Shown piece after piece: positions 1-46,710 of a stretch of 64,000 bases of DNA. This DNA is from Candidatus Thiopontia autotrophica (GTDB taxonomy: Bacteria > Pseudomonadota > Gammaproteobacteria > GCF-002020875): NCBI GenBank assembly GCA_014384675.1, contig JACNFK010000024.1, forward strand, positions 17,018 through 81,017, read 5' to 3'. How positions within the stretch are numbered: position 1 is the stretch's first letter; every line of letters starts with the position of its first letter. Below the pieces are notes generated by a model that did no database searches, was not told where the DNA came from, and was given only the letters and a program-made list of their open reading frames with translations. The position numbers and the translations under genes are program-made.

Positions 1-413
1 ACTGGACAGGGATTTCGCTGCGCTACATCCCCGCCAGTGAGCTTTAGCGGTAGCTGCTTTGCTCCATCACCTCTTTGTCTTTGATCATGAGTTGTGACAT
101 TTCAGCCATTCGGCCCTTGGGTGCTTCGTTGGTTGCGGGTCCATTCGATATGATCGCTTTCGGGCATCACCAGTTTCCAGGTCTTGCGACATACAGAGAG
201 ATTCTTGGTTCTTCGGATACGTCTTGCAGCTACCAAGCCAGTGGAGTCAACCGGGTGAGCCGGGTTCACGGGAGCTTCATTCACTCCTCGACTCCTTTTC
301 TCTTCACGCCCGGTGACTCACTTTCACGGTAGCCCCTGAAACCATGTCCGCTCTACTTGCATACTTCGTCGCTCTTTTCGTGTGCCATATAGCGTACCTA
401 TTTGCGCAGATAC

Positions 414-443
414 CATTCGGCATACTGGCATTCGGCATACTGG
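414..443 (+). repeat. Tandem direct repeat, 2 x 15 bp (cattcggcatactgg), in degenerate DNA upstream of the NirT remnant
   Basis: Two adjacent identical 15-mers are visible in the sequence. Confidence 0.8.
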
Positions 444-609
444 CACCGATTGCGCGTCGTAGTCCCGGCGCCGCCAGCTATATCGGGACGCTCATGGGCT
501 TTGGCGCAGCTTACGTCTCCGTGCCAGCATTGCTGTTGTTCTCATTGCCGTTCACCAAGACATGCCTTATCGCGCCTGCACTTGTTCGCCTCCTTTCTGA
601 TTTGTCGCG

Positions 610-1002
610 TTGGAGTCGATCGAGTGCCGCGTTTGCGGAGGCAGATCCAGCCACACAAAAGTAGTACGCAAGATCAAGGCATCCAATGAGCTCTACCACA
701 AGATGATGGGGACTATAGATACTCCAGAGAAATTTGAAGAGAAACGGATGGAGTTGGCACAAAATGTCTGGAAAACAATGAAAGATACTGACTCAAGGGA
801 GTGCAGAAACTGTCACGGCTTTGACTACATGGATTTTGATAAACAGGAAGAGCGTAGTGCAGACCGTCATGATGAGGCGATAGAGAACAGAGATCCGGAT
901 AATGAGGAGACTCATGGAGAGGGAGAGACCTGTATCGATTGTCACAAGGGAATCGCACATCGCCTGCCTGAGGGGTATGACCCTGCAGAGGATGACTCCT
1001 GA
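610..1002 (+). pseudogene. C-terminal fragment of a NapC/NirT-family tetraheme cytochrome (haem motifs 3 and 4 only), a probable gene remnant
   Basis: The 130 aa ORF aligns with the C-terminal half of the NirT domain at 8975 (KIKASNELYHKMMGTIDTPEKF, CRNCH, CIDCH). The TM helix and first two CXXCH motifs are missing. Upstream frames contain no cytochrome sequence. Confidence 0.55.
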
Positions 1003-1086
1003 GGGGTCACAGGATGAAATACTATTGAAATATTTCAGTGAAAGAATAGCTGGTAAGGAGGGATGTAACAGGTAAGGAGTTTTAAT

Positions 1087-1875
1087 GTGACAATGGGGAA
1101 ACGTCTGGGCCGTAGAGAGTTTATGGTCGAAAGTGGAAGAGTGGTCGGTGGAGTTTCCCTGCTGGGGGCAATTATAAGCCTCTTTGGCAAACAGGCTGCA
1201 TCAATGCCAGCTTATGCCATCAGGCCGCCAGGGGCAATTGCGGAAGAGAGCTTTCTTGGGGCCTGTACACGTTGTGGGATGTGTGTAAGTGATTGTCCTT
1301 ACGATATTCTTCACCTTGCCGAACTTCAGGAGGGGGTTGCTCTTGGCACTCCATATTTTGTTGCACGTGAAATACCATGCGAGATGTGTGATGACATTCC
1401 CTGTGTCCGTAACTGTCCGACTGGAGCATTGGACAGGGATATGGAGGATATTGAAAAAGCAGAGATGGGGATAGCAGTTCTTGTTGACCGCGAGACATGC
1501 CTGAATATTCTGGGGCTGCGTTGTGATATCTGCTACCGGGTCTGTCCGGTTATGGATGAGGCCATTAGTCTGGAGCGGATCCCCAATCTTCGTACGGGCA
1601 CCCATACTATTTTTGTTCCCACAGTTCACTCCGGCCGCTGTACTGGCTGCGGTCTCTGTGAGCATGCCTGCCCACTTCCTGTGGCAGCAATCAAAGTACT
1701 TCCTGAAACTATAGCTAAGGGGCAGATGGGAGAACACTATCGTCTGGGATGGAATGAAAAGGAGAAGGCAGGCAAGGCTCTGGTTACCCCAGATATTGAG
1801 CATAAATACAATCTCCCTGAGGGGTTCAGTTATGAGCTAATGGGCGAGGGTCTGATTGAGGTGCCGGACAGATGA
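1087..1875 (+). CDS. NapG/NosG/MauM-family periplasmic poly-ferredoxin (4x [4Fe-4S]) with a Tat signal
   Basis: RREFMV twin-arginine motif and several CxxCxxCxxxCP motifs. GGTAAGGAG SD lies 9 nt before a GTG/ATG start. Paired with a NapH-like gene. Confidence 0.8.
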   Translation: MTMGKRLGRREFMVESGRVVGGVSLLGAIISLFGKQAASMPAYAIRPPGAIAEESFLGACTRCGMCVSDCPYDILHLAELQEGVALGTPYFVAREIPCEMCDDIPCVRNCPTGALDRDMEDIEKAEMGIAVLVDRETCLNILGLRCDICYRVCPVMDEAISLERIPNLRTGTHTIFVPTVHSGRCTGCGLCEHACPLPVAAIKVLPETIAKGQMGEHYRLGWNEKEKAGKALVTPDIEHKYNLPEGFSYELMGEGLIEVPDR

Positions 1876-1893
1876 TCAAGGAGAGAGAGTAAA

Positions 1894-2787
1894 ATGGCAC
1901 GTAAGGAGATTGGCGCAGCAGCAATCGAAGAGAAGGGGTGGATCCGTTCCCACAAGTGGCTACTAATGAGGAGGATATCCCAGCTCTCCATTATAGGGCT
2001 GTTTCTGCTCGGTCCATTAGCCTCAATCTGGTTTTTGGGGAGGCTGGAAGAGGAGTTCTGGATCATCAAGGGCAACCTGGCATCCAGTGTAGTGCTGGAT
2101 ACAATTCCACTAACTGATCCCTTCATCTACCTGCAGACTCTGTTTGCAGGACAGGCCTTTGAGGCAACAGCCCTGGTTGGCGCTCTGATTGTGACAATCT
2201 TCTACCTGGTAGTGGGTGGACGAGTCTACTGCTCTTGGGTCTGTCCCATGAATATGGTGACCGATGCGGCGGGCTGGTTACGGCGCAGACTAGGGATAAA
2301 GAAAAAATGTGACTCCTCCCCCAATATTCGCTTCTGGATTCTTGGGATGGTGATGATCATAGCCATGTTCAGCGGTATTATGTTATGGGAACTGATAAAT
2401 CCAGTCACTCTGTTGCAGCGAAGTATCTTCTATGGTTTTGGAATGGGTTGGATTATTGTGGTTACTCTCTTTTTCTACGATCTACTCTGGAGTCGTAATG
2501 GGTGGTGCGGTCACCTATGCCCTATGGGTGCTTTTTACAGTCTGTTGGGAAAATTCAGCCTGCTACGGGTACGTGCAGCAGAGCGCGCTGCCTGTGACGA
2601 CTGTATGGACTGTTTTGCTGTCTGCCCGGAGCCTCAGGTTATAAGGCCGGCACTCAAGGGGGAGAGTGGAGAGAGCCCGGTCATTGATCACTCTCAGTGC
2701 ACCAACTGTGGCCGCTGTATCGATATATGTGGACCAGATGTGTTTAGTTTTGGGAGTAGATTTAACAACAGACAGTATGATTTATAA
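1894..2787 (+). CDS. NapH/NosH/MauN-family integral-membrane ferredoxin (quinol dehydrogenase membrane subunit)
   Basis: TM helices, CSWVCP and CGHLCP motifs, and two C-terminal 4Fe-4S motifs (CDDCMDCFAVCP, CTNCGRCIDIC). Confidence 0.8.
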   Translation: MARKEIGAAAIEEKGWIRSHKWLLMRRISQLSIIGLFLLGPLASIWFLGRLEEEFWIIKGNLASSVVLDTIPLTDPFIYLQTLFAGQAFEATALVGALIVTIFYLVVGGRVYCSWVCPMNMVTDAAGWLRRRLGIKKKCDSSPNIRFWILGMVMIIAMFSGIMLWELINPVTLLQRSIFYGFGMGWIIVVTLFFYDLLWSRNGWCGHLCPMGAFYSLLGKFSLLRVRAAERAACDDCMDCFAVCPEPQVIRPALKGESGESPVIDHSQCTNCGRCIDICGPDVFSFGSRFNNRQYDL

Positions 2788-2872
2788 GTAATATATTGCA
2801 TTAATATCTTCTTAAAACATTATGTTCCTGCTGCCATTCTAAGGGATGTTGCAGTTATTAGTTGAATCTAGG

Positions 2873-4099
2873 CTAAAGCCCGATCTGCCCGGCACGGTTG
2901 GTAAAGAAGATGCCGCTGGGGCTCTCCATTGGCAGGCTCTTCAGTAGCTCAAATGTCTCTGTGTCATAGATCTCTACCAAGTTTTTGTCACGCACTGAAA
3001 CCCATACCTCTTCACCTCTGGGGGTGAACTCCATATGCAGAACCCCTTTGCCTGGGTGCATCTGGTGGATTATATTCAGACTCTCTGCATCAATAATTTG
3101 CAGGGTGTCGTTGTGCGGGAATGCAAAATTTACCCAGATCTGACGGCCATCCGGACGGCTTATGGCAAATACGGGCTGGCTATGTACCTGAATTCGTCCG
3201 CTCTCTTGCCAGCTTCCGCTATCAACAACCAGTAGTTCGTGACGGCCCACAGCTGGCAGAAATGTTTTATCTCCAGCCTCTGCCCACCCCTCAAGATGAG
3301 GCATTTTGTATACCGGGAGTTTCTGTTCGCCACGTCCATAGTGGTCAAGAATACGTTTCACCCCATTTTCCGGGTGCCAGAGATCGAGCAGGGCGAGCCC
3401 ATCCTCGCCAAACAGCCCGGCAATGTAGATTCGGCCATCAGGAGTAATCAATCCATCATATGGTTGTCGGCCGATATCGGTGAATTTTTTGATGGATGAT
3501 GAGCCATCATCACTCATCTTGATAAGCCATATCTCGCCACTATCAAACAGACTGAATACAAAATGGTTTCCGGGGGCATCTACCAGACCAACCGTGCGAG
3601 ACCTCTTCTGCTCTGAGAGTGCAGTTGCCTCGATATCTGCTACCAGCTCAAGGGTTTTGCTGTCAAAAATGCGTACACCACCAGGCTCATAGTTTGATAC
3701 AGCAACCCATCTGCCGTCCTGAGAAATTGCCCCACCAATACTGTTGCCGCCCTGAATAATACGTTTTTCTATCTTTTTGCAGAGCAGGTCAATCTTGGTG
3801 AGGCCACCATCTCTACCGAAGATAAAGGCGTAGCGTGCATCGCGAGAGTAGACAGCGGAGGCGTGGGAGAGGTCACCAAGCTCCTCAACTCTTCCCAGTG
3901 ATATACGTTCTGTGGTATCGACTATCTGCACAGAGCCACTGGCACGTTCGATTATTATGCCAAGGTCGCCGGTTCCTCTGGTCTCACAGGCGAGCAGTGA
4001 GGTATGAATAGTTCCCAGCAGGATAATTATTGGTATCAACAGGTTATTTCTCATACCAGGTGCCTTGCAGTAGATGTGTAGCAATATAGTGGATCTCAT
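2873..4099 (-). CDS. nirF: NirF, a haem d1 biosynthesis protein with a cd1-like beta-propeller; probably a lipoprotein (likely start MRNN..LLAC)
   Basis: About 390 aa of propeller sequence similar to the NirS C-terminal domain, with no c-haem motif. Lipobox LLAC. Adjacent to nirC and nirE. Confidence 0.75.
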   Translation of the reverse strand: MRSTILLHIYCKAPGMRNNLLIPIIILLGTIHTSLLACETRGTGDLGIIIERASGSVQIVDTTERISLGRVEELGDLSHASAVYSRDARYAFIFGRDGGLTKIDLLCKKIEKRIIQGGNSIGGAISQDGRWVAVSNYEPGGVRIFDSKTLELVADIEATALSEQKRSRTVGLVDAPGNHFVFSLFDSGEIWLIKMSDDGSSSIKKFTDIGRQPYDGLITPDGRIYIAGLFGEDGLALLDLWHPENGVKRILDHYGRGEQKLPVYKMPHLEGWAEAGDKTFLPAVGRHELLVVDSGSWQESGRIQVHSQPVFAISRPDGRQIWVNFAFPHNDTLQIIDAESLNIIHQMHPGKGVLHMEFTPRGEEVWVSVRDKNLVEIYDTETFELLKSLPMESPSGIFFTNRAGQIGL

Positions 4100-4400
4100 T
4101 GCCGGTTAAAATAGGGGCCCATGGAGGCATTGGAGTGCCGGGACGGCCATGAGATATGGTTATCTCCAGAAAATTCTCAGGGTATAGGTTGAGCCGGACC
4201 GGATCCAGACTTGGGCCCAATCCTCCCTTTAGGGTCAGGCCATGGCATGAGCCACAATCCTGTTTGACCATATGGGCAATCTCGGCCTTCCTCTTTTCAG
4301 TCAGGCCATTATCTGAGCTGTTATCTCCAGCCCCAATAGATACGGGAGAGATTGTGATGAGGAGTGGAATCAGCAGGAGAGATAGATATTTCATCCACAA
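4044..4400 (-). CDS. nirC: Monohaem cytochrome c55X (NirC)
   Basis: Signal peptide, a single CGSCH motif and a ~100 aa mature protein, sitting between nirE and nirF. Confidence 0.75.
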   Translation of the reverse strand: MWMKYLSLLLIPLLITISPVSIGAGDNSSDNGLTEKRKAEIAHMVKQDCGSCHGLTLKGGLGPSLDPVRLNLYPENFLEITISHGRPGTPMPPWAPILTGNEIHYIATHLLQGTWYEK

Positions 4401-4409
4401 TACAGCCTG

Positions 4410-5216
4410 TTAGCCATGCAGGGAAGTGGTGGCAGATGGGTTCAACTCTTCATCAACCATCCCAAACCAGTCAAGCTCGTCACTGAGTTTTACAACCTTG
4501 CCTACAACAATCAGGGCAGGGGATTTTAACCCCTCTCTTTTGACCGCATCTTCAATGGTGTGGAGGGTTGCAATAGCCTTGCGTTGCTCCCTAGATGTGC
4601 CGTTCTCGATAACAGCGACAGGGGTGTCGGCAGAGAGTCCATGTCTGGTTAGATTGTCAGCAATCATGGATAGATTATGCAGCCCCATGTAGATCACAAG
4701 GGTTAATTCCGGGTTGGCCATTCCTCTCCAATCCAGCTCAACAGCCTCATCATTCTTGAAGTGCCCGGTAACGAATAGAACTCCCCTGGAGAGTGATCTA
4801 TGAGTGACCGGGATCCCGGCATATGCTGAGGCGGCAATTCCAGAGGTGATTCCCGGGACGATCTCAAATCGGATCTTCTCTCTCTTGAGAACAAGAGCCT
4901 CCTCACTGCCACGACCGAAGATAAATGGATCACCTCCCTTGAGTCTAACAACACTACGCCCATTTTTGGCAAGATTAACCAGGGTCTGATTTATCTCATC
5001 CTGGGTCATTGAGTGTTTGCCACAACTCTTGCCTGCATATATGCGTGGCACCCCCTGGGGTATAAGATCAAGAATTTCCTGGCTTACCAGACGGTCATGA
5101 ACTACTACCTCAGCCTGCTCAATACGTCGTAATGCCTTGATTGTAAGTAGGTCTGGGTCTCCAGGGCCGGCACCAATCAGGGAAACTACCGGTTCTCTAT
5201 TAATACTCTTGTTCAT
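4410..5216 (-). CDS. nirE: Uroporphyrinogen-III C-methyltransferase (SUMT) for the haem d1 pathway
   Basis: LIGAGPGDPDLLT SAM-methyltransferase motif and CobA/CysG-C-like sequence throughout. Context within the nir cluster. Confidence 0.85.
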   Translation of the reverse strand: MNKSINREPVVSLIGAGPGDPDLLTIKALRRIEQAEVVVHDRLVSQEILDLIPQGVPRIYAGKSCGKHSMTQDEINQTLVNLAKNGRSVVRLKGGDPFIFGRGSEEALVLKREKIRFEIVPGITSGIAASAYAGIPVTHRSLSRGVLFVTGHFKNDEAVELDWRGMANPELTLVIYMGLHNLSMIADNLTRHGLSADTPVAVIENGTSREQRKAIATLHTIEDAVKREGLKSPALIVVGKVVKLSDELDWFGMVDEELNPSATTSLHG

Positions 5217-5251
5217 ATAGGCAAATGTAGTAGATAACAGAGTCTCCGTAA

Positions 5252-5265
5252 TTGATTCATATCAA
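5252..5265. promoter_or_regulatory. Perfect FNR/Dnr box TTGAT-TCAT-ATCAA, centred 42 bp upstream of the nirE ATG
   Basis: Exact match to TTGAT-N4-ATCAA in the nirE/nirS divergent intergenic region. Confidence 0.7.
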
Positions 5266-5345
5266 TAACAATGCTCCATTATCTTCATAGAATGGATACC
5301 TGTAACCGCACTCGGAAGGGTTAATTTATATTAGTAATTTGTGGT

Positions 5346-5359
5346 TTGATCTAGATCAA
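5346..5359. promoter_or_regulatory. Perfect FNR/Dnr box TTGAT-CTAG-ATCAA, centred about 134 bp upstream of the nirS copy 1 ATG
   Basis: Exact consensus match. A Dnr-type regulator is encoded at 11058. Confidence 0.7.
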
Positions 5360-5486
5360 TGAACTGCAGGTGACTTTTGGTGGATCCTTAGTGGCGTGTG
5401 AAAAAACCTGACAACAGGAATGGGAATTATCTTTGTTCTCTACCTGCTGTTTTAACTTCTGTAAATTGTAAAGAGGGATATCCAAG

Positions 5487-7232
5487 ATGATTGATGGTAA
5501 GAAGAGGAGTTTCAAGAGGGGTGCAACCCTGGGTCTGGCAATAGCCATTACTCTGGGATTATCAGGGTGTGGTGACTCTGGTGATTCAGGCGCATCAAAA
5601 ACGGCAGCACCAGCACCGGCTCCAGCAGCAGCCCCAGCACCGGCTCCTGTCCCAGCAGCACCAGTCAAGGTGGCTGCGTCCGGGCCATCACTATCAGAGG
5701 CTGATTTTGAGCACTCCAAGAAGCTCTACTTCCAGCGCTGTGCAGGTTGTCACGGTGTACTGAGAAAAGGGGCGACAGGCAAGAGTCTGGAGCCAAAAGA
5801 TACTCGTGAGCTAGGTCAGGAGCGTCTGGAGAAGATTCTGACTTACGGAACAGACGGTGGAATGAACAACTTTGATGATATCTTCAGCAAGGAAGAGATC
5901 TCAATGATGGCCACCTACATTCAGTTGGAGCCACCAATTCCACCAGAGATGTCACTGGCGATGATGAAGGAGCGTACCGAGGTATTTATTGATCCCAAGG
6001 ACTATCCAACCAAGCCACTACATGGACGTAACTGGGAGAACTTCTTCGTAGTTATCGAGCGTGATGCTGGTAAGGCAGCAGTAATCGATGGTGATACCAA
6101 AGAGATTATCGACCATATTGACACTGGTTACGCAGTACACGTAATCAAGGCTACCGAGCACCATGAGACCGAGCATCCTGTTGGCGGTGTTGCCGGACGC
6201 TTCTGGTACACAATGGGTCGTGATGGCGTAATGAGCAAGATCGATCTGTGGCAGAACCCAGGAAGCATGCTGGTTGCCAAGACCCAGATTGCATATGATG
6301 CACGTGATGTTGCGATCTCTGGAGATGGTAAATATGTAATTGGTGGAGGCTACTGGCCACCACACTTCGTAATTGCCGATGCTGTTACCATGGAGCCACT
6401 GAAGGTAGTATCCACTCGTGGGGTAAATGTTGATGGTGAGTATGTAAATGAGTCACGTGTAGCTGCGGTCTACACCACTCCAAACGAGCCAACCTTCCTG
6501 GTTGCGGTCAAGGAGCTGGGGCAGATGTGGCAGGTTGACTACAGTGATATCGAGAATTTGGATATCACCAAAATCGACTCTGCGAAGTTCCTCCATGATG
6601 GATTCTTTGATCCAACCGGACGTTACTTCCAGATTGCGGCAAATGCATCCAACAAGATGGTTGTAGTAGATACCAAGACCCGCAAGCTTGAGGCGATGAT
6701 TGATACCACTGGCAAGAAGCCACACCCTGGCCCTGGTGCAAACTGGGATGATCCAAAACATGGTCCTGTAGGTGCTACGGTCCATCTGGGAACAGGTATG
6801 GTAACTGTATGGGGTAATGATCCAGCCGGTACACCAAGCAAGGCCTGGAAGATCGTACGTGAGATTGAGACTGATGGAGCAGGTGCATTTATCCGTACCC
6901 ATCCAAACTCCAAGTATGTATGGGCAGATCAGGTCAAGAACCCTGAGCCTGAGATACAGCAGTCTGTACAGGTTATCTCCAAGGAGACCGGCGAGATCGT
7001 CAAGACTATCCGGGTAACTGAAGAGCAGGGCAAGGCGGCACTCCATATTGAGTTTAACAAGGATGGAAGTGAGGCTTGGGTATCTGTCTGGAACCGTACA
7101 GATAACTCTAACCCAACTGGTGAGATCGTAGTCTACGATGCAGATACTCTTGAAGAGAAGGCTCGTATCAAGGGGCTGACCACACCAACCGGTAAGTTCA
7201 ACGTTTATAGTAGAACTAACCACGTAACTTGA
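5487..7232 (+). CDS. nirS: Cytochrome cd1 nitrite reductase NirS, copy 1, a lipoprotein form with an Ala/Pro-rich linker
   Basis: CAGCH c-haem domain plus a d1 propeller. The N-terminus has lipobox LSGC followed by GDSGDSG and (AP)n low-complexity sequence. Residues GPSLSEADF onward are identical to copy 2. Confidence 0.9.
   Translation: MIDGKKRSFKRGATLGLAIAITLGLSGCGDSGDSGASKTAAPAPAPAAAPAPAPVPAAPVKVAASGPSLSEADFEHSKKLYFQRCAGCHGVLRKGATGKSLEPKDTRELGQERLEKILTYGTDGGMNNFDDIFSKEEISMMATYIQLEPPIPPEMSLAMMKERTEVFIDPKDYPTKPLHGRNWENFFVVIERDAGKAAVIDGDTKEIIDHIDTGYAVHVIKATEHHETEHPVGGVAGRFWYTMGRDGVMSKIDLWQNPGSMLVAKTQIAYDARDVAISGDGKYVIGGGYWPPHFVIADAVTMEPLKVVSTRGVNVDGEYVNESRVAAVYTTPNEPTFLVAVKELGQMWQVDYSDIENLDITKIDSAKFLHDGFFDPTGRYFQIAANASNKMVVVDTKTRKLEAMIDTTGKKPHPGPGANWDDPKHGPVGATVHLGTGMVTVWGNDPAGTPSKAWKIVREIETDGAGAFIRTHPNSKYVWADQVKNPEPEIQQSVQVISKETGEIVKTIRVTEEQGKAALHIEFNKDGSEAWVSVWNRTDNSNPTGEIVVYDADTLEEKARIKGLTTPTGKFNVYSRTNHVT
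5682..7228 (+). repeat. Copy 1 of a 1547 bp perfect tandem direct repeat (nirS core); copy 2 lies 1712 bp downstream
   Basis: The 515 aa translations are identical and all off-frame and antisense ORFs are identical in both copies (e.g. 6018..6365 = 7730..8077). The boundaries are marked by mismatches at 5681/7393 and 7229/8941. Confidence 0.85.
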
Positions 7233-7240
7233 TGAGAGAG

Positions 7241-7276
7241 GCCCCTTTAACCTGACTGGTGAAAGGGGCTTTTTAC
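7241..7276 (+). terminator. Rho-independent terminator between nirS copy 1 and copy 2
   Basis: gcccctttaacc...ggtgaaaggggc hairpin followed by TTTTT. Confidence 0.6.
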
Positions 7277-8944
7277 AAGAGGAGGTTTTTTGTTTTGTTT
7301 AGGAGAACTATAAAGATGAAGAAATTATCATTGACTGCATTAAGTCTTGCAGTAGGTGTTGCAATGGGAGGGGTTGGCACTACAGTAAGTGCTGGGCCAT
7401 CACTATCAGAGGCTGATTTTGAGCACTCCAAGAAGCTCTACTTCCAGCGCTGTGCAGGTTGTCACGGTGTACTGAGAAAAGGGGCGACAGGCAAGAGTCT
7501 GGAGCCAAAAGATACTCGTGAGCTAGGTCAGGAGCGTCTGGAGAAGATTCTGACTTACGGAACAGACGGTGGAATGAACAACTTTGATGATATCTTCAGC
7601 AAGGAAGAGATCTCAATGATGGCCACCTACATTCAGTTGGAGCCACCAATTCCACCAGAGATGTCACTGGCGATGATGAAGGAGCGTACCGAGGTATTTA
7701 TTGATCCCAAGGACTATCCAACCAAGCCACTACATGGACGTAACTGGGAGAACTTCTTCGTAGTTATCGAGCGTGATGCTGGTAAGGCAGCAGTAATCGA
7801 TGGTGATACCAAAGAGATTATCGACCATATTGACACTGGTTACGCAGTACACGTAATCAAGGCTACCGAGCACCATGAGACCGAGCATCCTGTTGGCGGT
7901 GTTGCCGGACGCTTCTGGTACACAATGGGTCGTGATGGCGTAATGAGCAAGATCGATCTGTGGCAGAACCCAGGAAGCATGCTGGTTGCCAAGACCCAGA
8001 TTGCATATGATGCACGTGATGTTGCGATCTCTGGAGATGGTAAATATGTAATTGGTGGAGGCTACTGGCCACCACACTTCGTAATTGCCGATGCTGTTAC
8101 CATGGAGCCACTGAAGGTAGTATCCACTCGTGGGGTAAATGTTGATGGTGAGTATGTAAATGAGTCACGTGTAGCTGCGGTCTACACCACTCCAAACGAG
8201 CCAACCTTCCTGGTTGCGGTCAAGGAGCTGGGGCAGATGTGGCAGGTTGACTACAGTGATATCGAGAATTTGGATATCACCAAAATCGACTCTGCGAAGT
8301 TCCTCCATGATGGATTCTTTGATCCAACCGGACGTTACTTCCAGATTGCGGCAAATGCATCCAACAAGATGGTTGTAGTAGATACCAAGACCCGCAAGCT
8401 TGAGGCGATGATTGATACCACTGGCAAGAAGCCACACCCTGGCCCTGGTGCAAACTGGGATGATCCAAAACATGGTCCTGTAGGTGCTACGGTCCATCTG
8501 GGAACAGGTATGGTAACTGTATGGGGTAATGATCCAGCCGGTACACCAAGCAAGGCCTGGAAGATCGTACGTGAGATTGAGACTGATGGAGCAGGTGCAT
8601 TTATCCGTACCCATCCAAACTCCAAGTATGTATGGGCAGATCAGGTCAAGAACCCTGAGCCTGAGATACAGCAGTCTGTACAGGTTATCTCCAAGGAGAC
8701 CGGCGAGATCGTCAAGACTATCCGGGTAACTGAAGAGCAGGGCAAGGCGGCACTCCATATTGAGTTTAACAAGGATGGAAGTGAGGCTTGGGTATCTGTC
8801 TGGAACCGTACAGATAACTCTAACCCAACTGGTGAGATCGTAGTCTACGATGCAGATACTCTTGAAGAGAAGGCTCGTATCAAGGGGCTGACCACACCAA
8901 CCGGTAAGTTCAACGTTTATAGTAGAACTAACCACGTAACCTAA
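7259..8944 (+). CDS. nirS: Cytochrome cd1 nitrite reductase NirS, copy 2, a soluble periplasmic form (likely start ATG 7316, MKKLSLTALSLAVG)
   Basis: Sec signal peptide ending VSA-G; otherwise identical to copy 1. Confidence 0.9.
   Translation: MKGAFYKRRFFVLFRRTIKMKKLSLTALSLAVGVAMGGVGTTVSAGPSLSEADFEHSKKLYFQRCAGCHGVLRKGATGKSLEPKDTRELGQERLEKILTYGTDGGMNNFDDIFSKEEISMMATYIQLEPPIPPEMSLAMMKERTEVFIDPKDYPTKPLHGRNWENFFVVIERDAGKAAVIDGDTKEIIDHIDTGYAVHVIKATEHHETEHPVGGVAGRFWYTMGRDGVMSKIDLWQNPGSMLVAKTQIAYDARDVAISGDGKYVIGGGYWPPHFVIADAVTMEPLKVVSTRGVNVDGEYVNESRVAAVYTTPNEPTFLVAVKELGQMWQVDYSDIENLDITKIDSAKFLHDGFFDPTGRYFQIAANASNKMVVVDTKTRKLEAMIDTTGKKPHPGPGANWDDPKHGPVGATVHLGTGMVTVWGNDPAGTPSKAWKIVREIETDGAGAFIRTHPNSKYVWADQVKNPEPEIQQSVQVISKETGEIVKTIRVTEEQGKAALHIEFNKDGSEAWVSVWNRTDNSNPTGEIVVYDADTLEEKARIKGLTTPTGKFNVYSRTNHVT
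7394..8940 (+). repeat. Copy 2 of the 1547 bp perfect tandem repeat
   Basis: See copy 1. Confidence 0.85.
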
Positions 8945-8954
8945 GTAGAGTAGT

Positions 8955-8990
8955 GGCCGGCACCTGCATATCAGGTGCCGGTTTTTTTAT
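8955..8990 (+). terminator. Rho-independent terminator after nirS copy 2
   Basis: ccggcacctg / caggtgccgg stem followed by TTTTTTT. Confidence 0.6.
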
Positions 8991-10708
8991 ATAATTTATT
9001 TGTACTGCCTGAGGAGCCTTTAATGCCGATTCCTGAAAGACCAAGTTTCAAAGAGAGAATAAAGGTGCTGTTTTCGCGTCGTTTGATCCTCAATACGACA
9101 CTTGGAGGTGGTCTGGTGTTTGCCCTGTTTGGAATTATCTTTTGGGGTGGATTCAATACGGCAATGGAGGTAACAAATACCCTGGAGTTCTGTATCTCAT
9201 GTCATGAGATGGAGGACAATGTATACAAGGAGTACCAAAAGACTATCCACTATGCGAATCGTACTGGAGTACGGGCAACCTGTTCGGATTGTCATGTGCC
9301 TGATCCATGGATACATAAGGTAGCCAGAAAGATTGAGGCCAGTAACGAGGTGTTACACAAGATGTTGGGGACTATTGATACCCCTGAAAAGTTTGATGCA
9401 AAACGTCTGCAGTTGGCAAAAAATGTATGGCGTTCGATGAAGAGTACTGACTCCAGAGAGTGTCGGAACTGTCACAATTTTGAGGCGATGAATGGAGACA
9501 TGCAGAAGCCTCGTGCGATGAATCAACATACCAATGCGCTCAGGTCAGGACAGACCTGTATCGACTGCCATAAGGGTATTGCGCACAAAGGGGTTCATAA
9601 GCTGTTGAGTGATGAAGAGAAGGAGGCGATGGAGGCCCCTGATGAGTCACTGGCGAAACCTGAGGCAAAACTGTTCCAGCTGGCTGATCTGGATCCGGTA
9701 GCTGCGGCAGCAGCCAAGGCTGCAGCAGAGAAGGCAGCAGCAGAGGCAGCAGCAGAGGCAGCAGCCTCGGCCCAGGCAGGTAATTGGGAGACTATTGTGG
9801 GACGAGAGATTCACCTCATCTATCCTGGCCAGACATCCATAGAGTGGGTGCTGAATGGAACAGATCACGGTGGAGCAAATGCCTTTAAAAAGGGTGGAGA
9901 TCGATGCGTTACCTGTCATGACAAAGAGGCCAAGATTATGGGCGACCGTATAGTTGGTGGCACGCATGAGAAGGCGATGGAGCCAACTCCGATTGCTGGC
10001 AAGCGGGGTGGAGTTCCTGTCATGGTGAAGGCCGCTCATGATGGCGATAATCTATACATGCAGTTTACCTGGCATGATGTTGACCACCATACAGCGGGGC
10101 ATAAGTCGGTTGTTGAGGCTGAGCGGATGGATCCCGAGAACCCTGTCAAGCTGGCGATAATGTTTGCGACCGATCAAGTAGAGTTTGCAGACCGTTCAGG
10201 ATGTTGGGGAACTTGTCACCATGATGCCAATGGCATGCCCCATCAGCCAGAGGGTACAGATGTAACCAAGTACACCAAGGAGTCACGCACCAAGATTGAG
10301 GTCAAGGGGCGTCGTGGCAAGAAGCGTGGTGGCTGGGACAAGTTGAGAAAGCCTGAAGAGATTAAGGCTGCACTTGATCAGAAAAAGATCATGGATCTTG
10401 TGCGCTACAAGGCTGGCAGCAACCAGGCAGAAGATGGAATGATCCTGGCCAGCCGTGATATGAGTGGTAACAGTGATGACCTTGAGTTTGAGGGCAAGAG
10501 AGATGACCAGGGAAACTGGGTGGTAGAGATGAAGCGTAAGCTGAATTCCGGTGATGCAGATGATCTGTCACTGGCGCTGGACCAAGTCTATAATTTTGGT
10601 TTTGCTATCCATGATGACTACACCAATGGACGCTTCCACCATGTCTCATTTGGTTACAAGCTTGGGTTTGATGACCCAAAAGCGGAGATCAATGCTGTAA
10701 AATGGTGA
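8975..10708 (+). CDS. nirT: NirT/NapC-family membrane tetraheme quinol dehydrogenase fused to a ~330 aa C-terminal domain with extra haem motifs (likely start 9023, MPIPERP)
   Basis: TM helix then CISCH, CSDCH, CRNCH, CIDCH. An Ala-rich linker (AAAAAKAAAEKAAAEAAAEAAA) follows. The C-terminal domain carries CVTCH and CWGTCH (CX3CH). Confidence 0.8.
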   Translation: MPVFLYNLFVLPEEPLMPIPERPSFKERIKVLFSRRLILNTTLGGGLVFALFGIIFWGGFNTAMEVTNTLEFCISCHEMEDNVYKEYQKTIHYANRTGVRATCSDCHVPDPWIHKVARKIEASNEVLHKMLGTIDTPEKFDAKRLQLAKNVWRSMKSTDSRECRNCHNFEAMNGDMQKPRAMNQHTNALRSGQTCIDCHKGIAHKGVHKLLSDEEKEAMEAPDESLAKPEAKLFQLADLDPVAAAAAKAAAEKAAAEAAAEAAASAQAGNWETIVGREIHLIYPGQTSIEWVLNGTDHGGANAFKKGGDRCVTCHDKEAKIMGDRIVGGTHEKAMEPTPIAGKRGGVPVMVKAAHDGDNLYMQFTWHDVDHHTAGHKSVVEAERMDPENPVKLAIMFATDQVEFADRSGCWGTCHHDANGMPHQPEGTDVTKYTKESRTKIEVKGRRGKKRGGWDKLRKPEEIKAALDQKKIMDLVRYKAGSNQAEDGMILASRDMSGNSDDLEFEGKRDDQGNWVVEMKRKLNSGDADDLSLALDQVYNFGFAIHDDYTNGRFHHVSFGYKLGFDDPKAEINAVKW

Positions 10709-10709
10709 G

Positions 10710-11069
10710 ATGATAATTATTAATTACAGGCCTCTCATGCTTCTGCTGGGAGGCCTTTTTTTTGTTTCAGGATGTTCAAATGATCTGCCTGTGCCAAAGG
10801 TGGTTGAGATTGAGATCATTAATTATGGATACCAACCACAAACTGTGACCATTAATCCCGGTGATACAGTACGCTGGATTAACCGTGAGAAGAGACAGTA
10901 CCACTCGGTAAAACTTGATGGTGATGGTGGCGGTGGTTCGGTTAATTCAGAGTATCTCTTTCCTGGGGAGAGCTGGGAGCATACCTTCAGTCAAGAAGGG
11001 GTGTACAACTATATGTGTGGCCCACATTCGGAAATGGTTGGAGCTGTGAAGGTGAAATCACTCATCTAG
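10710..11069 (+). CDS. Type-1 (blue) copper cupredoxin lipoprotein (plastocyanin/pseudoazurin-like)
   Basis: Lipobox FVSGC. H..YMCGPHSEM(V) has the C-x-P-H-x-x-M copper-ligand spacing. Its start lies 2 bp after the nirT stop. Confidence 0.75.
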   Translation: MIIINYRPLMLLLGGLFFVSGCSNDLPVPKVVEIEIINYGYQPQTVTINPGDTVRWINREKRQYHSVKLDGDGGGGSVNSEYLFPGESWEHTFSQEGVYNYMCGPHSEMVGAVKVKSLI

Positions 11070-11744
11070 GGTTTCTCGCATCTTCTCGGCATTGAGGATG
11101 TGGACCTCGTAGCCATGAACCTCAATCATCTTGTTCTTTTTCAGTTTCCCAAGAATGCGAGAGAAGGTCTCTCTCTGAATCGAGAGTCTGGAGGCAATTA
11201 CACTTTTCTGGGTCGGTAACTGAAAGGTGCCTTCATTGTCCTCGGCAGGAATGAAGGTGAGCAGATAGCTTATCAATCTGTGGGTGGCATTATGCAGGCA
11301 TAGGCCATCTATCTCCTGTACATAACTCTGTAGTCGCATACTAAGGTCAGACATGATCGAGAAGGTAGTGTCCGGATCTGAGCGCAAGATATTTTTGTAT
11401 ATCTTACTGTTGAAAACAAAGATCTCTCCACTCTCCAGGAACTGGCTGTTGACAGGGTAGGTGCCACCATCCATAAACATCATCGCCTCAGCAAAGGATT
11501 GGCCAGCCTGGAGAATATTTACCGTCTTCTCACCGCCGTCGAGGGCTAGTAGATAAAGTCGAATGGTGCCGGTTCTTACGATAAAGAAATGGGTTGCTGC
11601 TTCATCTTTAAGGAACAGGGTCTCATTTGGTTTTTTTCTGATTAGTTCGGATGTCTCCAACATCTCTTGCATGGACTCTTTGGTGAGAGAGGCAAAAAGC
11701 GGAGAGCGGCGAAGTTCACGCTCAAAAACAGTGGATAGAGACAT
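11058..11744 (-). CDS. dnr: Crp/Fnr-family regulator of the Dnr/NnrR type (no N-terminal Cys cluster)
   Basis: cNMP-binding fold plus a C-terminal HTH with the E--SR recognition motif (RETFSRIL) expected for TTGAT half-sites. Confidence 0.75.
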   Translation of the reverse strand: MSLSTVFERELRRSPLFASLTKESMQEMLETSELIRKKPNETLFLKDEAATHFFIVRTGTIRLYLLALDGGEKTVNILQAGQSFAEAMMFMDGGTYPVNSQFLESGEIFVFNSKIYKNILRSDPDTTFSIMSDLSMRLQSYVQEIDGLCLHNATHRLISYLLTFIPAEDNEGTFQLPTQKSVIASRLSIQRETFSRILGKLKKNKMIEVHGYEVHILNAEKMRETLDE

Positions 11745-11814
11745 AGGTTATTTGGTAATTGTGTTTTATAATTTTCGCTATAGTGTATAGGTATTATCTG
11801 GGCTTGTTAAGGTT

Positions 11815-11828
11815 TTGATGTAAATCAA
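11815..11828. promoter_or_regulatory. Perfect FNR/Dnr box TTGAT-GTAA-ATCAA between dnr and the hemerythrin gene
   Basis: Exact consensus, 66 bp upstream of the hemerythrin ATG and 78 bp upstream of the dnr ATG. Confidence 0.7.
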
Positions 11829-11887
11829 ATCACAAAAAATGGTATCTTAGGTACACTATGGTTAGTTCTGTTTAACCCCTGAGAGGA

Positions 11888-12475
11888 ATGAGTTTTATGA
11901 AGAAAAGTTACTCTATGTTTGCGCTATTTTCATTAATCATTATAGCGCTGGTAGTTGTCTTTCTGGGGTTCGTGGTATTTGGCCCGGGTAATCCGGTTCC
12001 ATGGGTAATATTGGTTATTCTGGCATTGATCCCATACTTTCATGAACGCAGTGTGCGCAAGGAGTATATAGAGTGGAGTAGCCAGTACGAGGTTGGTGTC
12101 AAATTAATTGACCATGACCACCAGAAGTTGGTTGGGCTGTTAAACCAGGTTGTCAGTGCCTCTCACTATAATATGGGGAAGGGGTATGTGAAGGGTGTCA
12201 TTGAGGAGCTGATCGAATATACCAAATACCACTTCGAGCGCGAGGAGGGGTTGATGCGGGATAACAACTGGACTGATATTGATGCCCATATGAAACAGCA
12301 CAGGGATATGGTGGATAAAGTGGAGGCCTTTAGTAGTAAATATACAGGGGATCTGGATGGTCAGGAGGAGCTCAGTACAGAGATTCACCACTTCCTGAAG
12401 GATTGGTTGCTTGACCATATTGTACGTACCGATAAAGAGCTTGGTCAATTCCTGATATCCAGTGGAGTGAAGTAG
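11888..12475 (+). CDS. Membrane-anchored hemerythrin-like (bacteriohemerythrin) protein
   Basis: Two N-terminal TM helices followed by an HHE cation-binding domain (IDHDHQKL, HFEREE, DWLLDHI). Confidence 0.75.
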   Translation: MSFMKKSYSMFALFSLIIIALVVVFLGFVVFGPGNPVPWVILVILALIPYFHERSVRKEYIEWSSQYEVGVKLIDHDHQKLVGLLNQVVSASHYNMGKGYVKGVIEELIEYTKYHFEREEGLMRDNNWTDIDAHMKQHRDMVDKVEAFSSKYTGDLDGQEELSTEIHHFLKDWLLDHIVRTDKELGQFLISSGVK

Positions 12476-12481: not shown

Positions 12482-13168
12482 ATGAGATATCCAGGCAGGC
12501 TATTTGGGGTTGGTGCACTACTCCTCTCCTTTGCGATCTATGCTGATGCACCGCTGGATAATGAGCTTACTCTTGCAATGGCAGCCACCCCAAACGTGGA
12601 GTCGGGCAGAGAGGTTTTTAGACTCTGTGTTGTCTGTCACCAGATTAACTCATGGGGAACTATTGATGGCAGCTATCCACAACTGGCGGGACAGCATAGC
12701 AGTGTAATCATCAAGCAGATTGCCGATATCAGGGCAGGCAATCGGGATAATCCATCCATGCTGATAATAGCCCAGGAGAAGGTGATGGGTGGCCCCCAGG
12801 CAATTGCAGATGTAACTGCCTATATCCAGACGTTACCTATGACCCCGACCCCTGGCGTTGGCCCGGGACACAAACTGGGTAAGGCAGAACGTACATATTT
12901 CAGAAAATGTGCCGAGTGTCATGGTGGTGATGGTGGTGGAGATTCGGGTAGATATTTCCCCCGCCTTCAAGGGCAGCACTATGCCTATCTGTTGAGACAG
13001 TTACAGTGGATCCGTGATGACAAGAGACGCAATGCCAATAGCGAGATGATGCGCAGGGTTAGCAAGATGAAGGATGCCGAGCTTTCAATCCTGGCGGACT
13101 ATATCTCCAGAATCAGGCCGCCTGCAGAGGATATGGCACCAGAGGGTTGGAAGAACCCGGATTTTTAA
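12482..13168 (+). CDS. Dihaem cytochrome c4-family protein
   Basis: Signal peptide with CVVCH and CAECH motifs. Paralogous to the dihaem cytochrome at 31748 (shared QHYAY.LRQ..WIRD.KRRNAN). Confidence 0.8.
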   Translation: MRYPGRLFGVGALLLSFAIYADAPLDNELTLAMAATPNVESGREVFRLCVVCHQINSWGTIDGSYPQLAGQHSSVIIKQIADIRAGNRDNPSMLIIAQEKVMGGPQAIADVTAYIQTLPMTPTPGVGPGHKLGKAERTYFRKCAECHGGDGGGDSGRYFPRLQGQHYAYLLRQLQWIRDDKRRNANSEMMRRVSKMKDAELSILADYISRIRPPAEDMAPEGWKNPDF

Positions 13169-13565: not shown

Positions 13566-15023
13566 CTAAAAAAGTTTAATAGGATGGGGGTTTGGGGGAT
13601 TTGACAAAATCTCTCTGATCCGGGCAGCCATATCATTGGCTGATATGCCATGAGCCAGTTTTGTTATGAATTCACCATTGGGAGCCATCAGAAAGACCCC
13701 TGAGGAGTGGTCCATAATGTATTGCTCAGGATCTCTCGATTCGTCCACAACCTTCTCATACTTCACATTATATATCCGGGCGACTCGGTCAGTCATGGCC
13801 TGAGTGCCGGTTAGTCCTGTCAGGGCAGGGTGAAAATAGTTAACATAGGTGCTTAGTACATCAGGGGTGTCTCTGGCAGGATCAACCGTAATAAAGTATG
13901 GCTGAATCTGCTCTGCATCATCCCCTATCCTGTTTAGTGCTGAAGAGATGGTGAGTAGTGAGGTTGGGCAGACATCGGGGCAGAAGGTGTATCCAAAGTA
14001 GACCAGGTGAAATTTCCCCAACATATCCTGATCAGTAAAGAGTTTGCCGTGATGATCACGTAGCATGAATTTGCCGCCAATATAGCTGGACGGTGTAGTG
14101 TCTTGGGCGCTGTTTTTAGCCACCTCTTTTGCAGACTCCTCTACAATTGAGTCATCCACATACTTGAGGCACTGTTTGATGGTGACTGTATTATGCTCCA
14201 TCAACTTGAAGTAGTGGTCTTCTCCAGCCTCTATCCTTGATCCAAAACTGTCCAGTAGACCAATATTTAGAGTGGTTCCATCGGTAAGCAGAGATAGTGC
14301 ATCTGGATCAATCTGTTGTTCAGTCAACAGACAGCTGTAGTCACCGCTCTTGAGCCGGGCTCTGTTTTGCAGAAATGAGAGCCCTCTGACTGGTGTCATT
14401 GGGGACTCTGCAACTACCCCTCGAATTTTTAGTGCATATGCCTGTTCAAAGTACTGCAAGGTATCATAGTAGGCCATTCCAATGCCGCTCTTCAATCCAC
14501 GGTATCCATACTCCAGACGACGATCCAGTTCAGCCAGTCTTCTCAATAGATTGCGACGGTTGTTTTCATATAGTGACTTACGTTCTGGATCAAGCTTTGT
14601 CAGCGCCCTGGCAAGTTCATCGGTAATGATGAGAATATTGCGGCTATCAAGCCAGATGAATGGATCACGCCTCTCCTTGTTCCAGCGTGATGTAAGGACC
14701 TTGATCTCCTCATTGTCGAGCAGGGTAAAGAGGGTGGTGTTTGGGCCAAGCAGCTCTAGCTGATTAACCATAAACTGCTCCAGCTCGGGCCCTATCCATA
14801 CAACCATATCTGCATCTCTGAGAGCATGTTGTTTGGATTTTGAGAGAGTTGCCGTGTATGGCGACTGCTGGTTGTCTACAAGTAGCTCGGGTGGGCGTGT
14901 ATCTGCCAGTAGACCAGAGAGAATTGAGTGGATTGGTTTTATGGTAGTGACAACCTTGAGCGGCTCACCACTCCAGGTAGCTGAAGAGAAGATCAGTAGT
15001 GCAAAGATGGAGAGCAGTCTCAA
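13566..15023 (-). CDS. Fusion protein: ZnuA/TroA-like periplasmic metal-binding SBP domain plus a C-terminal SCO1/SenC copper-chaperone domain
   Basis: Signal peptide and ~300 aa of cluster-9 SBP fold (DPFIWLD where ZnuA has DPHxWLD). The C-terminal ~170 aa carry CPDVCP (CxxxC) and a conserved His (MDHSSGVFL) as in Sco proteins. Confidence 0.7.
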   Translation of the reverse strand: MRLLSIFALLIFSSATWSGEPLKVVTTIKPIHSILSGLLADTRPPELLVDNQQSPYTATLSKSKQHALRDADMVVWIGPELEQFMVNQLELLGPNTTLFTLLDNEEIKVLTSRWNKERRDPFIWLDSRNILIITDELARALTKLDPERKSLYENNRRNLLRRLAELDRRLEYGYRGLKSGIGMAYYDTLQYFEQAYALKIRGVVAESPMTPVRGLSFLQNRARLKSGDYSCLLTEQQIDPDALSLLTDGTTLNIGLLDSFGSRIEAGEDHYFKLMEHNTVTIKQCLKYVDDSIVEESAKEVAKNSAQDTTPSSYIGGKFMLRDHHGKLFTDQDMLGKFHLVYFGYTFCPDVCPTSLLTISSALNRIGDDAEQIQPYFITVDPARDTPDVLSTYVNYFHPALTGLTGTQAMTDRVARIYNVKYEKVVDESRDPEQYIMDHSSGVFLMAPNGEFITKLAHGISANDMAARIREILSNPPNPHPIKLF

Positions 15024-15367
15024 AACAGCTTCTCCTGATGGTTCAGAAATCCTGTTTCCAGCTGCTCAATACTGCTATCAACCTGCTGACTGAGCTCTTT
15101 TTCACTGGGACATTGGGTTCCTGATTTTATAATGGCGAGAAAGGATTTGTTGGTTGCCTCGTCAAAAGCTATCCCGATAACCCTGATCTTGGGGACCGTT
15201 GCAACCATGGACCGCTTCATTCTACGGGTCTCATCGATGTATCCACAATTAAGAGCAATACCGTTAAGCTCACCCAGCTGCTTCACTCTCTCAAGTTGTT
15301 GGTCACTGACGGCATAAGCTGGTGCAGTCAGCAGTGCAAGACAAGGTATAAGGTATCTTTTTTTCAT
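15020..15367 (-). CDS. Hypothetical small secreted protein (signal peptide, two Cys)
   Basis: ORF with a signal peptide ending AYA-VS. No recognisable family. Confidence 0.4.
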   Translation of the reverse strand: MKKRYLIPCLALLTAPAYAVSDQQLERVKQLGELNGIALNCGYIDETRRMKRSMVATVPKIRVIGIAFDEATNKSFLAIIKSGTQCPSEKELSQQVDSSIEQLETGFLNHQEKLF

Positions 15368-15439: not shown

Positions 15440-15453
15440 TTGATCAAGATCAA
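15440..15453. promoter_or_regulatory. Perfect FNR/Dnr box TTGAT-CAAG-ATCAA between the small secreted-protein gene (-) and menA (+)
   Basis: Exact consensus. Centre is 20 bp before the menA ATG and 80 bp before the minus-strand gene start. Confidence 0.6.
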
Positions 15454-30380: not shown

Positions 30381-30410
30381 GTTTACGGACTTCGACTAAA
30401 TCGATCGGTT

Positions 30411-31622: not shown

Positions 31623-31747
31623 GTTGTAAAAACCCTTATATCTTTTGTTGTCTGGTTTTATTGCCCTGTCTTGTTCTATACGTCGTTACTCACTCCTCCA
31701 TGAGAAAATCTGGATTCACCCTCCTGTAGGGGAGGGTGAATCAAACA

Positions 31748-46692: not shown

Positions 46693-46710
46693 CCGAATTC
46701 TGCATAATTT

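Follow-up and report, generated by a model that had tools for sequence, protein, structure and literature searches.

Why would one genome keep two adjacent genes for the same nitrite reductase, alike throughout their catalytic parts and different in the signals that export them? The question is raised by a 64-kb stretch of DNA (64,000 nucleotides, nt; hereafter the window) from the Black Sea metagenome-assembled genome (MAG) NIOZ-UU100, 'Candidatus Thiopontia autotrophica', of the BS-GSO2 clade, in which two nirS genes for cytochrome cd1 nitrite reductase stand in tandem; both NirS proteins lie on a 147-kb contig. The organism is an autotroph that oxidises sulfur and carries a full denitrification pathway, and at the interfaces of the Black Sea and Cariaco its clade may be more numerous than SUP05 (PMC8359478). 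GenBank names the two products (MBC8519503.1 and MBC8519504.1) merely 'c-type cytochrome'. We consider it probable that they are an evolutionarily maintained isoform pair of one enzyme, one form lipid-tethered and the other soluble, with cores homogenised by gene conversion.

The first gene, nirS-L (5487–7232, forward strand), encodes a precursor of 581 amino acids (aa) with a lipoprotein-type signal, and the second, nirS-S (7316–8944, forward strand), a precursor of 542 aa with a Sec (signal peptidase I) signal. Their products are identical to MBC8519503.1 and MBC8519504.1, respectively. Re-alignment of 5682–7228 with 7394–8940, both on the forward strand, gave 1,547 nt with 0 mismatches, as claimed in an earlier note on this DNA, and this core is the sole long exact repeat in the window. 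In copy 1 it runs from Gly66 of the precursor, where the mature enzyme begins (GPSLSEADFE...), through the last codon. Identity sets in at the first codon past the Sec cleavage site of copy 2, between VSA and GPSLSE, and breaks off in the last sense codon, at its third base (ACT vs ACC); the stop codons differ as well (TGA vs TAA). Both boundaries had been described as single mismatches, which is true of the right edge, while at the left edge homology is lost completely where the signal- or linker-coding sequence ends. Apart from the tether, the mature proteins would be identical, each a 516-residue cytochrome cd1 nitrite reductase. The start of nirS-S is most likely the ATG at 7316, which has a ribosome-binding site (AGGAGA, 7302–7307) 9 nt upstream and gives the 542-aa product also called in GenBank and in two other assemblies, L001 and L095. 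The alternative start, a GTG at 7259, was rejected because the resulting N-terminus is not signal-peptide-like and because orthologs and gene callers use the ATG. A reverse-strand open reading frame (ORF) at 5351–5719 was set aside as an artefact of the GC-rich stretch coding for Ala and Pro.

By sequence, both genes encode complete, bona fide NirS, with a predicted nitrite-to-NO activity. Each ORF has a cytochrome c domain (PF13442) and a cytochrome d1 domain (PF02239, E ~1e-117). The CXXCH motif of nirS-L is CAGCH (residues 85–89; PF13442 E = 1.7e-10) and aligns with P. aeruginosa NirS, and the haem-d1 beta-propeller covers profile positions 2–367 of 368 (PF02239 E = 8.5e-117). The closest solved structures are the NirS of P. 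aeruginosa and P. pantotrophus (E 1e-136 to 1e-131, residues 51–577), with P. aeruginosa 5guw and 1nir as the best PDB matches (E ~1e-136). An AlphaFold2 model has a folded cytochrome c domain and is then all-beta from about residue 186 to 572. In the d1 site, the histidine-bearing motifs GYAVH, FLHDG, and PHPG line up with P. aeruginosa NirS and, by analogy with 1NIR, would supply the d1 proximal His and the two distal catalytic His. The two-domain enzyme is thus the same as in P. aeruginosa and P. pantotrophus, and nirF, nirC, and nirE adjoin it here, whereas those enzymes are soluble proteins exported by a Sec signal and the window adds a copy with a lipoprotein signal and tether. It differs from them further in having no mature N-terminal arm (the Tyr10/Tyr25 region), the core beginning ~18 residues before CXXCH, and in an 11-residue insertion after GYAVHVIKAT.

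The two N-termini are where the genes part. That of nirS-L, MIDGKKRSFKRGATLGLAIAITLGLSGC, has a basic n-region (KKRSFKR), an uncharged hydrophobic h-region, and the lipobox L-S-G-C (signal at 5487–5570, forward strand; codon TGT of Cys28 at 5568–5570). Lipoboxes were called with a rule resembling PROSITE PS51257: [LVI][ASTVI][GAS]C, with Cys at 15–35, no D, E, R, or K in the h-region, and K or R in the first 7 residues. The rule accepts nirS-L and the long forms of six other lineages and rejects nirS-S. Cys28 is followed by an Ala/Pro-rich linker, GDSGDSGASKTAAPAPAPAAAPAPAPVPAAPVKVAAS (5571–5681, forward strand; 59% Ala+Pro), and a linker peptide specific to the long form is TAAPAPAPAAAPAPAPVPAAPVK. 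In the AlphaFold2 model, residues 1–64 have a predicted local distance difference test (pLDDT) score below 50 (10-residue block means 28–34) and no secondary structure. The Sec signal of nirS-S, MKKLSLTALSLAVGVAMGGVGTTVSA (7316–7393, forward strand; 26 residues), has no lipobox and stops exactly at the start of the identical core, so that cleavage by signal peptidase I would leave GPSLSEADFEHSK as the predicted N-terminus. Short-form NirS of relatives have Sec signals near-identical or orthologous to it.

Most of what the earlier note read from these N-termini stands, including the lipoprotein signal on copy 1, whose lipobox, (G/S)DSGD motif, and Ala/Pro linker occur in the long forms of seven lineages, and the ordinary Sec signal on copy 2. 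The linker was put at ~45 aa and measures 37 between Cys28 and the shared core. Gly-Asp at +2/+3 was taken as a mark of inner-membrane retention, for which the classical Escherichia coli Lol-avoidance rule needs Asp at +2. None of the long forms examined has Asp there: residue +2 after the lipobox Cys is Gly in three (the window, L015, and L003), Ser in another three (L018, L006, and L010), and Phe in L077, and that reading is not supported. Lipidation of Cys28, sorting to the inner or outer membrane, and a tether function are predictions.

Is the tandem real? A single nirS gene, with its second copy or the tandem order produced by metagenome misassembly, would be a natural suspicion, since the window is a short-read MAG, exact 1.5-kb repeats are the usual trouble spots, and many public NirS N-terminal fragments end at contig ends. 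The 165-nt segment at 7229–7393, which holds an intergene hairpin, the ribosome-binding site, and the Sec signal, nevertheless has core on each side and therefore requires two cores, and each unique 5' end has orthologs elsewhere. Four more assemblies, from this population or a sister one, have the same tandem: L001 (European Nucleotide Archive [ENA] assembly ERZ24794671, NODE_218), L095 (ENA assembly ERZ24794639, NODE_1696), L015 (the sister-species MAG CAYQBY01), and L002, a Logan contig spanning the DNA upstream of copy 1, the core, and part of the copy 2 signal. Diverged pairs in relatives are stronger proof. L003–L005 and L016 (a second Piscirickettsiaceae-labelled MAG) have a 610-aa lipoprotein-type NirS followed by a 543-aa Sec-type NirS with cores that differ at 172 of 1,548 positions, and Saanich Inlet contigs L006–L009 encode long and short forms of 584 and 542 aa with 40 differing positions. 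Copies so clearly different cannot have arisen by collapse, and many independent assemblies contain them. Both forms recur across numerous separate assemblies, with cluster members of 581–585 aa and 542–544 aa on 34, 23, 14... contigs of up to 192 kb. We regard a single gene doubled by assembly as very improbable.

Long-form NirS was identified in seven lineages, namely the window/L001/L095 group, L015, L003, L018, L006, L077 (labelled Candidatus Thioglobus), and L010. Proteins P0001, P0002, P0003, and P0005 and the long forms of L015, L003, L018, L006, L077, and L010 share [LI][ST]GC, an x(D/G)(S/G)GD motif, and an Ala/Pro-rich linker that is 36–66 aa long among orthologs and always in frame. 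Six of the seven lineages also have the short form, directly downstream in five and 2.6 kb away in L006; L010 has the long form only. Relatives with a single nirS have a short form at the corresponding position. Gene order is conserved, with nirF-nirC(-nirE) divergent upstream and then nirS-L, nirS-S, a NirT-EB_dh fusion gene, and genes for a cupredoxin, a Crp/Fnr regulator, a hemerythrin, and a di-haem cytochrome c; the order seen in the window recurs in L015, L003, and L018. NirT-EB_dh lies downstream of short-form nirS, whether paired or single, in nine of ten relatives compared and is absent from L010. Domains, signals, and these orthologs agree with the original proposal of two tandem nirS genes whose difference is confined to their N-terminal targeting parts. 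For the deepest lineages we infer a single origin of the pair from the shared N-terminal motif alone. When a profile built from the seven long N-termini was run over the protein collection, most matches were fragments at contig ends and no further long-form clade emerged; the search is not usable as a census.

A different arrangement was observed in another NirS clade (L079, L043, L048, L060, L072, L086, and L089, including the Olavius algarvensis Gamma 3 symbiont), where a Cys lies within the signal h-region (…LLTACIGLATTSGVAFAKK…). It fits a loose lipobox pattern, yet a normal AxA cleavage site comes next, and targeting in this clade is ambiguous.

How have the two cores stayed alike? Codon alignments of the 516-residue core gave within-genome nucleotide identities of 99.94% in the window (the last codon only), 99.81% in L015, 99.36% in L018, 99.81% in L077, 97.4% in L006, and 88.9% in L003, compared with 70%–93% between genomes. 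The window and L015 differ by 108 substitutions in their long genes and 108 in their short genes, and 107 of these are common to both paralogs. Synonymous codon differences number 84 in the long and 83 in the short genes, nonsynonymous ones 12 and 13. Since both paralogs carry the same synonymous changes, selection at the protein level cannot explain the likeness. Between the two species the unique 5' segments are ~92% identical and the upstream intergenic region 80%. The sister species therefore has the pair and its unique 5' parts, with cores alike within each genome, and the pair predates the species split. The homogenised tract in the window, L015, L018, and L077 begins within the first two codons past the signal or linker, as expected if conversion stops where homology ends. 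The more diverged pairs are mosaics: L006 has an 836-nt run of zero differences with all 40 differences outside it (P ~1e-12 under uniform scatter), and L003 has a zero-difference run of 215 nt (P ~1e-9).

By these alignments, the pair is an old duplication subject to recurrent gene conversion, neither a fresh duplication nor an assembly artefact. The earlier note had left a choice between recent duplication and gene conversion; the 107 of 108 shared substitutions and the 5' parts shared with L015 favour conversion and speak against recent duplication. Independent recent duplications of nirS in each lineage, each with a separately gained long 5' end, are nonetheless worth weighing, given that paralogs group by genome and that pair-bearing and single-copy lineages are interleaved. 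Such a history would need repeated origins of the lipobox-(G/S)DSGD-Ala/Pro-linker module and of the gene order. It sits poorly with both 5' segments being shared by the window and L015 (~92%) while the cores carry 107 both-paralog substitutions, and the mosaic tracts of L003 and L006 are a signature of conversion, not of duplication. We judge this history quite improbable.

The duplication is shared with the sister species and, with its gene order kept, with more distant marine gammaproteobacterial sulfur oxidisers. Under the reading of an old pair homogenised by conversion, intrachromosomal conversion would repeatedly equalise the cores, with tracts limited by the non-homologous 5' ends on the left and by the stop codon on the right. 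Unequal crossing-over between the tandem cores would remove the gene for the soluble form, so that only the long one stayed, as in L010; that several lineages keep both genes despite this possible deletion implies selection for both. Long-lasting concerted evolution is known for tufA/tufB and for amoCAB, hao, and cyc of Nitrosomonadales, and nirS is not among the 26 genes listed (PMC6053082). The nirS pair resembles the tuf, amo, and hao paralogs in having within-genome similarity above between-genome similarity and distinct conserved contexts, a pattern ascribed there to recurrent conversion (PMC6053082). Unlike in those paralogs, conversion of nirS stops precisely at the targeting-signal boundary, homogenising the catalytic parts while the paralogs would stay functionally distinct.

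Several observations weigh against the pair as we read it. Pair-bearing and short-only lineages interleave in core similarity, which requires several losses or gains that are unexplained. The Pfam lipoprotein-signal profile PF13627 scores only 15.6 bits at the lipobox region, below its 27.3-bit cut-off. In the window, no FNR box or recognisable promoter was found for nirS-S itself, and its expression is only predicted. Every assembly with near-identical copies is short-read. A repeat in the arrangement A-R-B-R-C that is longer than the insert size becomes a graph loop with one collapsed R, and SPAdes-type assemblers pop bubbles at single-nucleotide polymorphisms (SNPs), pass the loop once, and write one consensus twice, so that the copies are identical by construction. 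Compared with L001 (12.5 kb aligned), the window has 1 difference, which is in the core and in both copies; compared with L095 (9.7 kb), it has 11, all in the core and in both copies; the flanks are identical in each comparison.

How exact, then, is the identity? The copies might really be ~99.3% identical, with their paralog SNPs bubble-popped, in which case both the zero divergence and the 'concerted' strain SNPs would be products of the assembler. The window, L001, and L095 share all flanking sequence, and a core-only, both-copy pattern is what would be expected if each assembly picked one allele per bubble. Real strain variants spread by conversion give the same pattern, and the three assemblies form a simple series of 0, 1, and 11 differences; the core-only differences fit strain variants spread to both copies and paralog SNPs resolved per assembly equally well. 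A comparison of the alleles at the 11 strain-variable sites with those of relatives was indecisive between the two. We hold the assembler origin to be rather doubtful. Even if all of the variation were hidden paralog divergence, we estimate that the copies would still be ~99.2%–99.3% identical, at least ~99.2%. This greatly exceeds the 93% shared with the sister species, so that conversion still follows, and zero divergence is unproven. The '100%' identity first reported is thus correct for the assembled sequence, and its exactness cannot be proven from short-read assemblies. The strain-variable sites themselves lie at core positions 76, 862–900, 1146, and 1395 and include a 9-nt patch with 6 changes (…NLDITK vs …NLRITK), between identical flanks of 8–11 kb.

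Four perfect TTGAT-N4-ATCAA boxes of the FNR/Dnr type occur in the window, compared with 0.15 expected. Two lie in the divergent nirE–nirS-L intergenic region, TTGATTCATATCAA at 5252–5265 and TTGATCTAGATCAA at 5346–5359, the latter centred ~135 nt upstream of the nirS-L start codon. The other two are at 11815–11828, upstream of the hemerythrin gene, and at 15440–15453, between an ORF at 15020–15367 and a UbiA gene. Of the seven long-form lineages, six have this anaerobic-type promoter box in perfect form ~100–230 nt before the long gene, and in L010 none turned up. A separate box for the short gene occurs only where the two genes are not tightly adjacent, in L006 (one mismatch) and L077 (perfect).

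The earlier note gave each copy its own intrinsic terminator, and each is indeed followed by a GC-rich hairpin with a U-run. The first, a terminator or attenuator between the genes, is a stem-loop with U5 (7236–7279, forward strand; minimum free energy −28.2 kcal/mol, z = −4.4), and L015, L003, L018, and L077 have a hairpin at the corresponding position. The second follows nirS-S and has a 12-bp stem and U7 (8955–8990, forward strand; −22.7 kcal/mol, z = −4.6). A simple consensus terminator scan lists the second hairpin only; the first, with its U5 and 13-nt loop region, may be a partial terminator. An Rfam scan of window positions 1–12000 returned nothing at E ≤ 0.01, hence no known RNA element in the intergenic DNA. 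With nirS-L promoter-proximal, nirS-S would in this genome probably be expressed by read-through or from an unrecognised promoter, and the intergene hairpin could set the isoform ratio.

What might two targeting forms of one enzyme do? The adjoining genes offer a setting. Upstream on the reverse strand are nirF (2873–4099; a d1-type beta-propeller for haem d1 biogenesis, PF02239, lipobox LLAC), a nirC-like mono-haem cytochrome c gene (4044–4400; PF13442), and nirE/cobA, for uroporphyrinogen-III C-methyltransferase (4410–5216; NCBIfam NF004790, above cut-off). Searches of the 64-kb window with nirN, nirJ, and nirH (tblastn) gave only cross-hits to the nirS, nirF, and nirC genes, nirD, nirL, and nirG not being queried; in the relative L006, these haem d1 biogenesis genes adjoin the nirS pair. 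Downstream on the forward strand is a gene whose product combines a NirT/NapC tetrahaem quinol dehydrogenase with an EB_dh haem-b domain (9023–10708; PF03264 + PF09459), its start at 9023 taken from a 561-aa gene call in L001. In this ORF (8975/9023–10708) an Ala-rich linker joins the NapC/NirT part to the ethylbenzene-dehydrogenase gamma-like domain. The NapC/NirT family (PF03264) consists of membrane-anchored tetrahaem cytochromes; the fusion would be anchored by its N-terminal part, which belongs to this family, and is an unusual candidate for a membrane-bound electron donor to NirS. Next come a small cupredoxin with lipobox VSGC (10710–11069, forward strand; PF00127) and a Crp/Fnr-family regulator, a candidate Dnr/NnrR (11058–11744, reverse strand; PF00027 + PF13545). 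The lipobox contexts are …HTSLLAC-ETRG in NirF and …FFVSGC-SNDL in the cupredoxin; several components of the nir cluster are thus predicted to be membrane-tethered. With nearby products membrane-bound or lipobox-bearing, a membrane-proximal nitrite-reducing module is suggested.

In such a module, nirS-L would be exported by a signal of the signal peptidase II type, and a lipidated Cys28 would hang NirS from the membrane on a ~37-residue disordered leash, while the nirS-S product, exported through its Sec signal, would be set free in the periplasm as soluble NirS. The tether would hold a fraction of the NO-producing enzyme beside membrane partners, namely NirT-EB_dh, the lipoprotein cupredoxin, the lipoprotein NirF, and NO reductase (NOR), and the soluble form would use diffusible donors. 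Identical cores would let the two forms build mixed dimers and share their maturation factors. More broadly, several lineages of marine chemolithoautotrophic denitrifiers (BS-GSO2 'Ca. Thiopontia', Thioglobus-like organisms, and related Thiotrichales MAGs) may make leashed and free cd1 forms, with recurrent conversion holding the catalytic parts identical, selection keeping both signals, and the tethered form or mixed dimers building a membrane-proximal NO-producing module with NirT-EB_dh, the cupredoxin, and NO reductase. We put this forward tentatively, as a possibility that could well prove wrong.

The long form may also be no tethered periplasmic enzyme. A different cleavage or proteolysis of the linker could free NirS, the protein could be sorted to the outer membrane or cell surface as is Neisseria AniA, or the second gene could serve mere dosage. 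Residue +2 is G, S, or F and not Asp, so avoidance of the Lol system cannot be inferred, and Ala/Pro-rich linkers are typical of Neisseria outer-membrane lipoproteins. The lipobox and linker are, however, kept across lineages whose cores are only 70%–80% identical, which argues for a selected tether role, and dosage alone would need no different signal. We think it unlikely that the long form is anything other than a tethered periplasmic enzyme.

How far does this depart from known systems? In textbooks, NirS is soluble and periplasmic. The literature was searched for NirS as a lipoprotein or anchored to a membrane by a lipid or other tether, for gene conversion and concerted evolution of nirS, and for Thiopontia/BS-GSO2. 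No description of such a pair turned up, the matches being cluttered by near-infrared spectroscopy (NIRS); a paper on SUP05 cultivation and one on Beggiatoaceae NirS contained nothing pertinent. The nearest parallels are in Neisseria, where AniA is a lipoprotein NirK and Laz is an azurin with an AAEAP-rich H.8 linker, both with a demonstrated outer-membrane location. They share with nirS-L a lipobox and a low-complexity Ala/Pro-rich linker on an otherwise soluble periplasmic redox domain of denitrification, and the window has a lipobox cupredoxin too. They differ in having copper instead of haem c/d1 and in their folds, and Neisseria is not known to have a soluble twin kept identical by conversion.

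NirF, also a nir protein with a d1-type beta-propeller, is an inner-membrane lipoprotein in P. aeruginosa and soluble in P. pantotrophus (PMC3694632), and in the window it has a lipobox. That contrast is one between species and concerns a maturation protein, whereas the window holds both forms of the catalytic enzyme in one genome. According to the accounts in PMC6872814 and PMC8139620, which cite Hole et al. 1996, cytochrome cd1 was purified from membranes of Thiobacillus denitrificans. This would be a membrane-associated enzyme of a sulfur-oxidising denitrifier, as here; T. denitrificans belongs to a different lineage, the Betaproteobacteria, in which no isoform pair is known to have been reported. 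What appears to be new is a NirS with a lipoprotein tether kept as one half of a converted isoform pair, its localisation, expression, and function being predictions.

The pair bears on a disputed point. PDB entry 5GUW, the best structural match, is a co-crystal of the NirS-NOR complex. The proximity of NirS and NO reductase at the membrane is debated, and the interaction measured in Paracoccus is weak (PMC6872814). A natural pair that differs only by a predicted lipid tether would be a clean system for this question. If the proposed roles are true, the denitrification chain is organised here in a way not described before, and the locus is a natural test of the disputed idea of NirS-NOR channelling. 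In the Black Sea, Cariaco Basin, and Saanich Inlet, BS-GSO2 and SUP05-like sulfur oxidisers play a major part in the loss of nitrogen at sulfidic interfaces (PMC8359478). nirS is also a standard marker, and two near-identical copies per genome double its apparent abundance in quantitative PCR and read counts, while the repeat breaks or collapses short-read assemblies and the long form is hidden under the annotation 'c-type cytochrome'. The locus further provides a bacterial example of conversion that is limited to the catalytic part of paralogs and leaves their sub-functionalised targeting signals untouched. Among public NirS entries, very many (proteins P0121–P0240) are N-terminal contig-end fragments, some named 'cytochrome c, partial', consistent with near-identical copies or strain variants that break short-read assemblies.

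Other content of the window includes napGH, a nos cluster, and menaquinone genes. Near the nir cluster, here and in relatives, a 485-aa ORF (13566–15023, reverse strand) joins a ZnuA-like metal-binding domain to a copper chaperone domain of the SCO1/SenC family. The di-haem cytochrome c gene by the nir cluster (12482–13168) has a diverged paralog on the opposite strand within the nos cluster (31748–32476), the matching parts being 12784–13038 and 31881–32135. The nos cluster (26310–35415, reverse strand) encodes a 789-aa NosZ-like protein with a nos_propeller domain, a cytochrome c, a 403-aa protein, NosD, two Fe-S proteins (Fer4/Fer4_5), and an ABC ATPase, a gene set that looks like the clade II type. 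Menaquinone-type genes (menF/D/C/E-like, UbiA, UbiE) lie at 15.4–24.4 kb. At the left end, window positions 1–654 contain no convincing ORF and no Rfam match and differ from L001, which has napA-napB-5' napC at that place; only the C-terminal part of napC is kept in the window (ORF 610–1002). The break at ~654 suggests that the DNA was rearranged, that a segment was inserted, or that the contig is a chimera joined at this point. An intergenic repeat of ~95 nt occurs in four copies of 66%–85% identity (46599–46693, 47959–48053, 61640–61734, and, inverted, 57187–57248). It contains the palindrome …CTGATT..GTCAC.A.GTGAC..AATCAG… and may be an element like a repetitive extragenic palindrome (REP) or miniature inverted-repeat transposable element (MITE), or a structured RNA.

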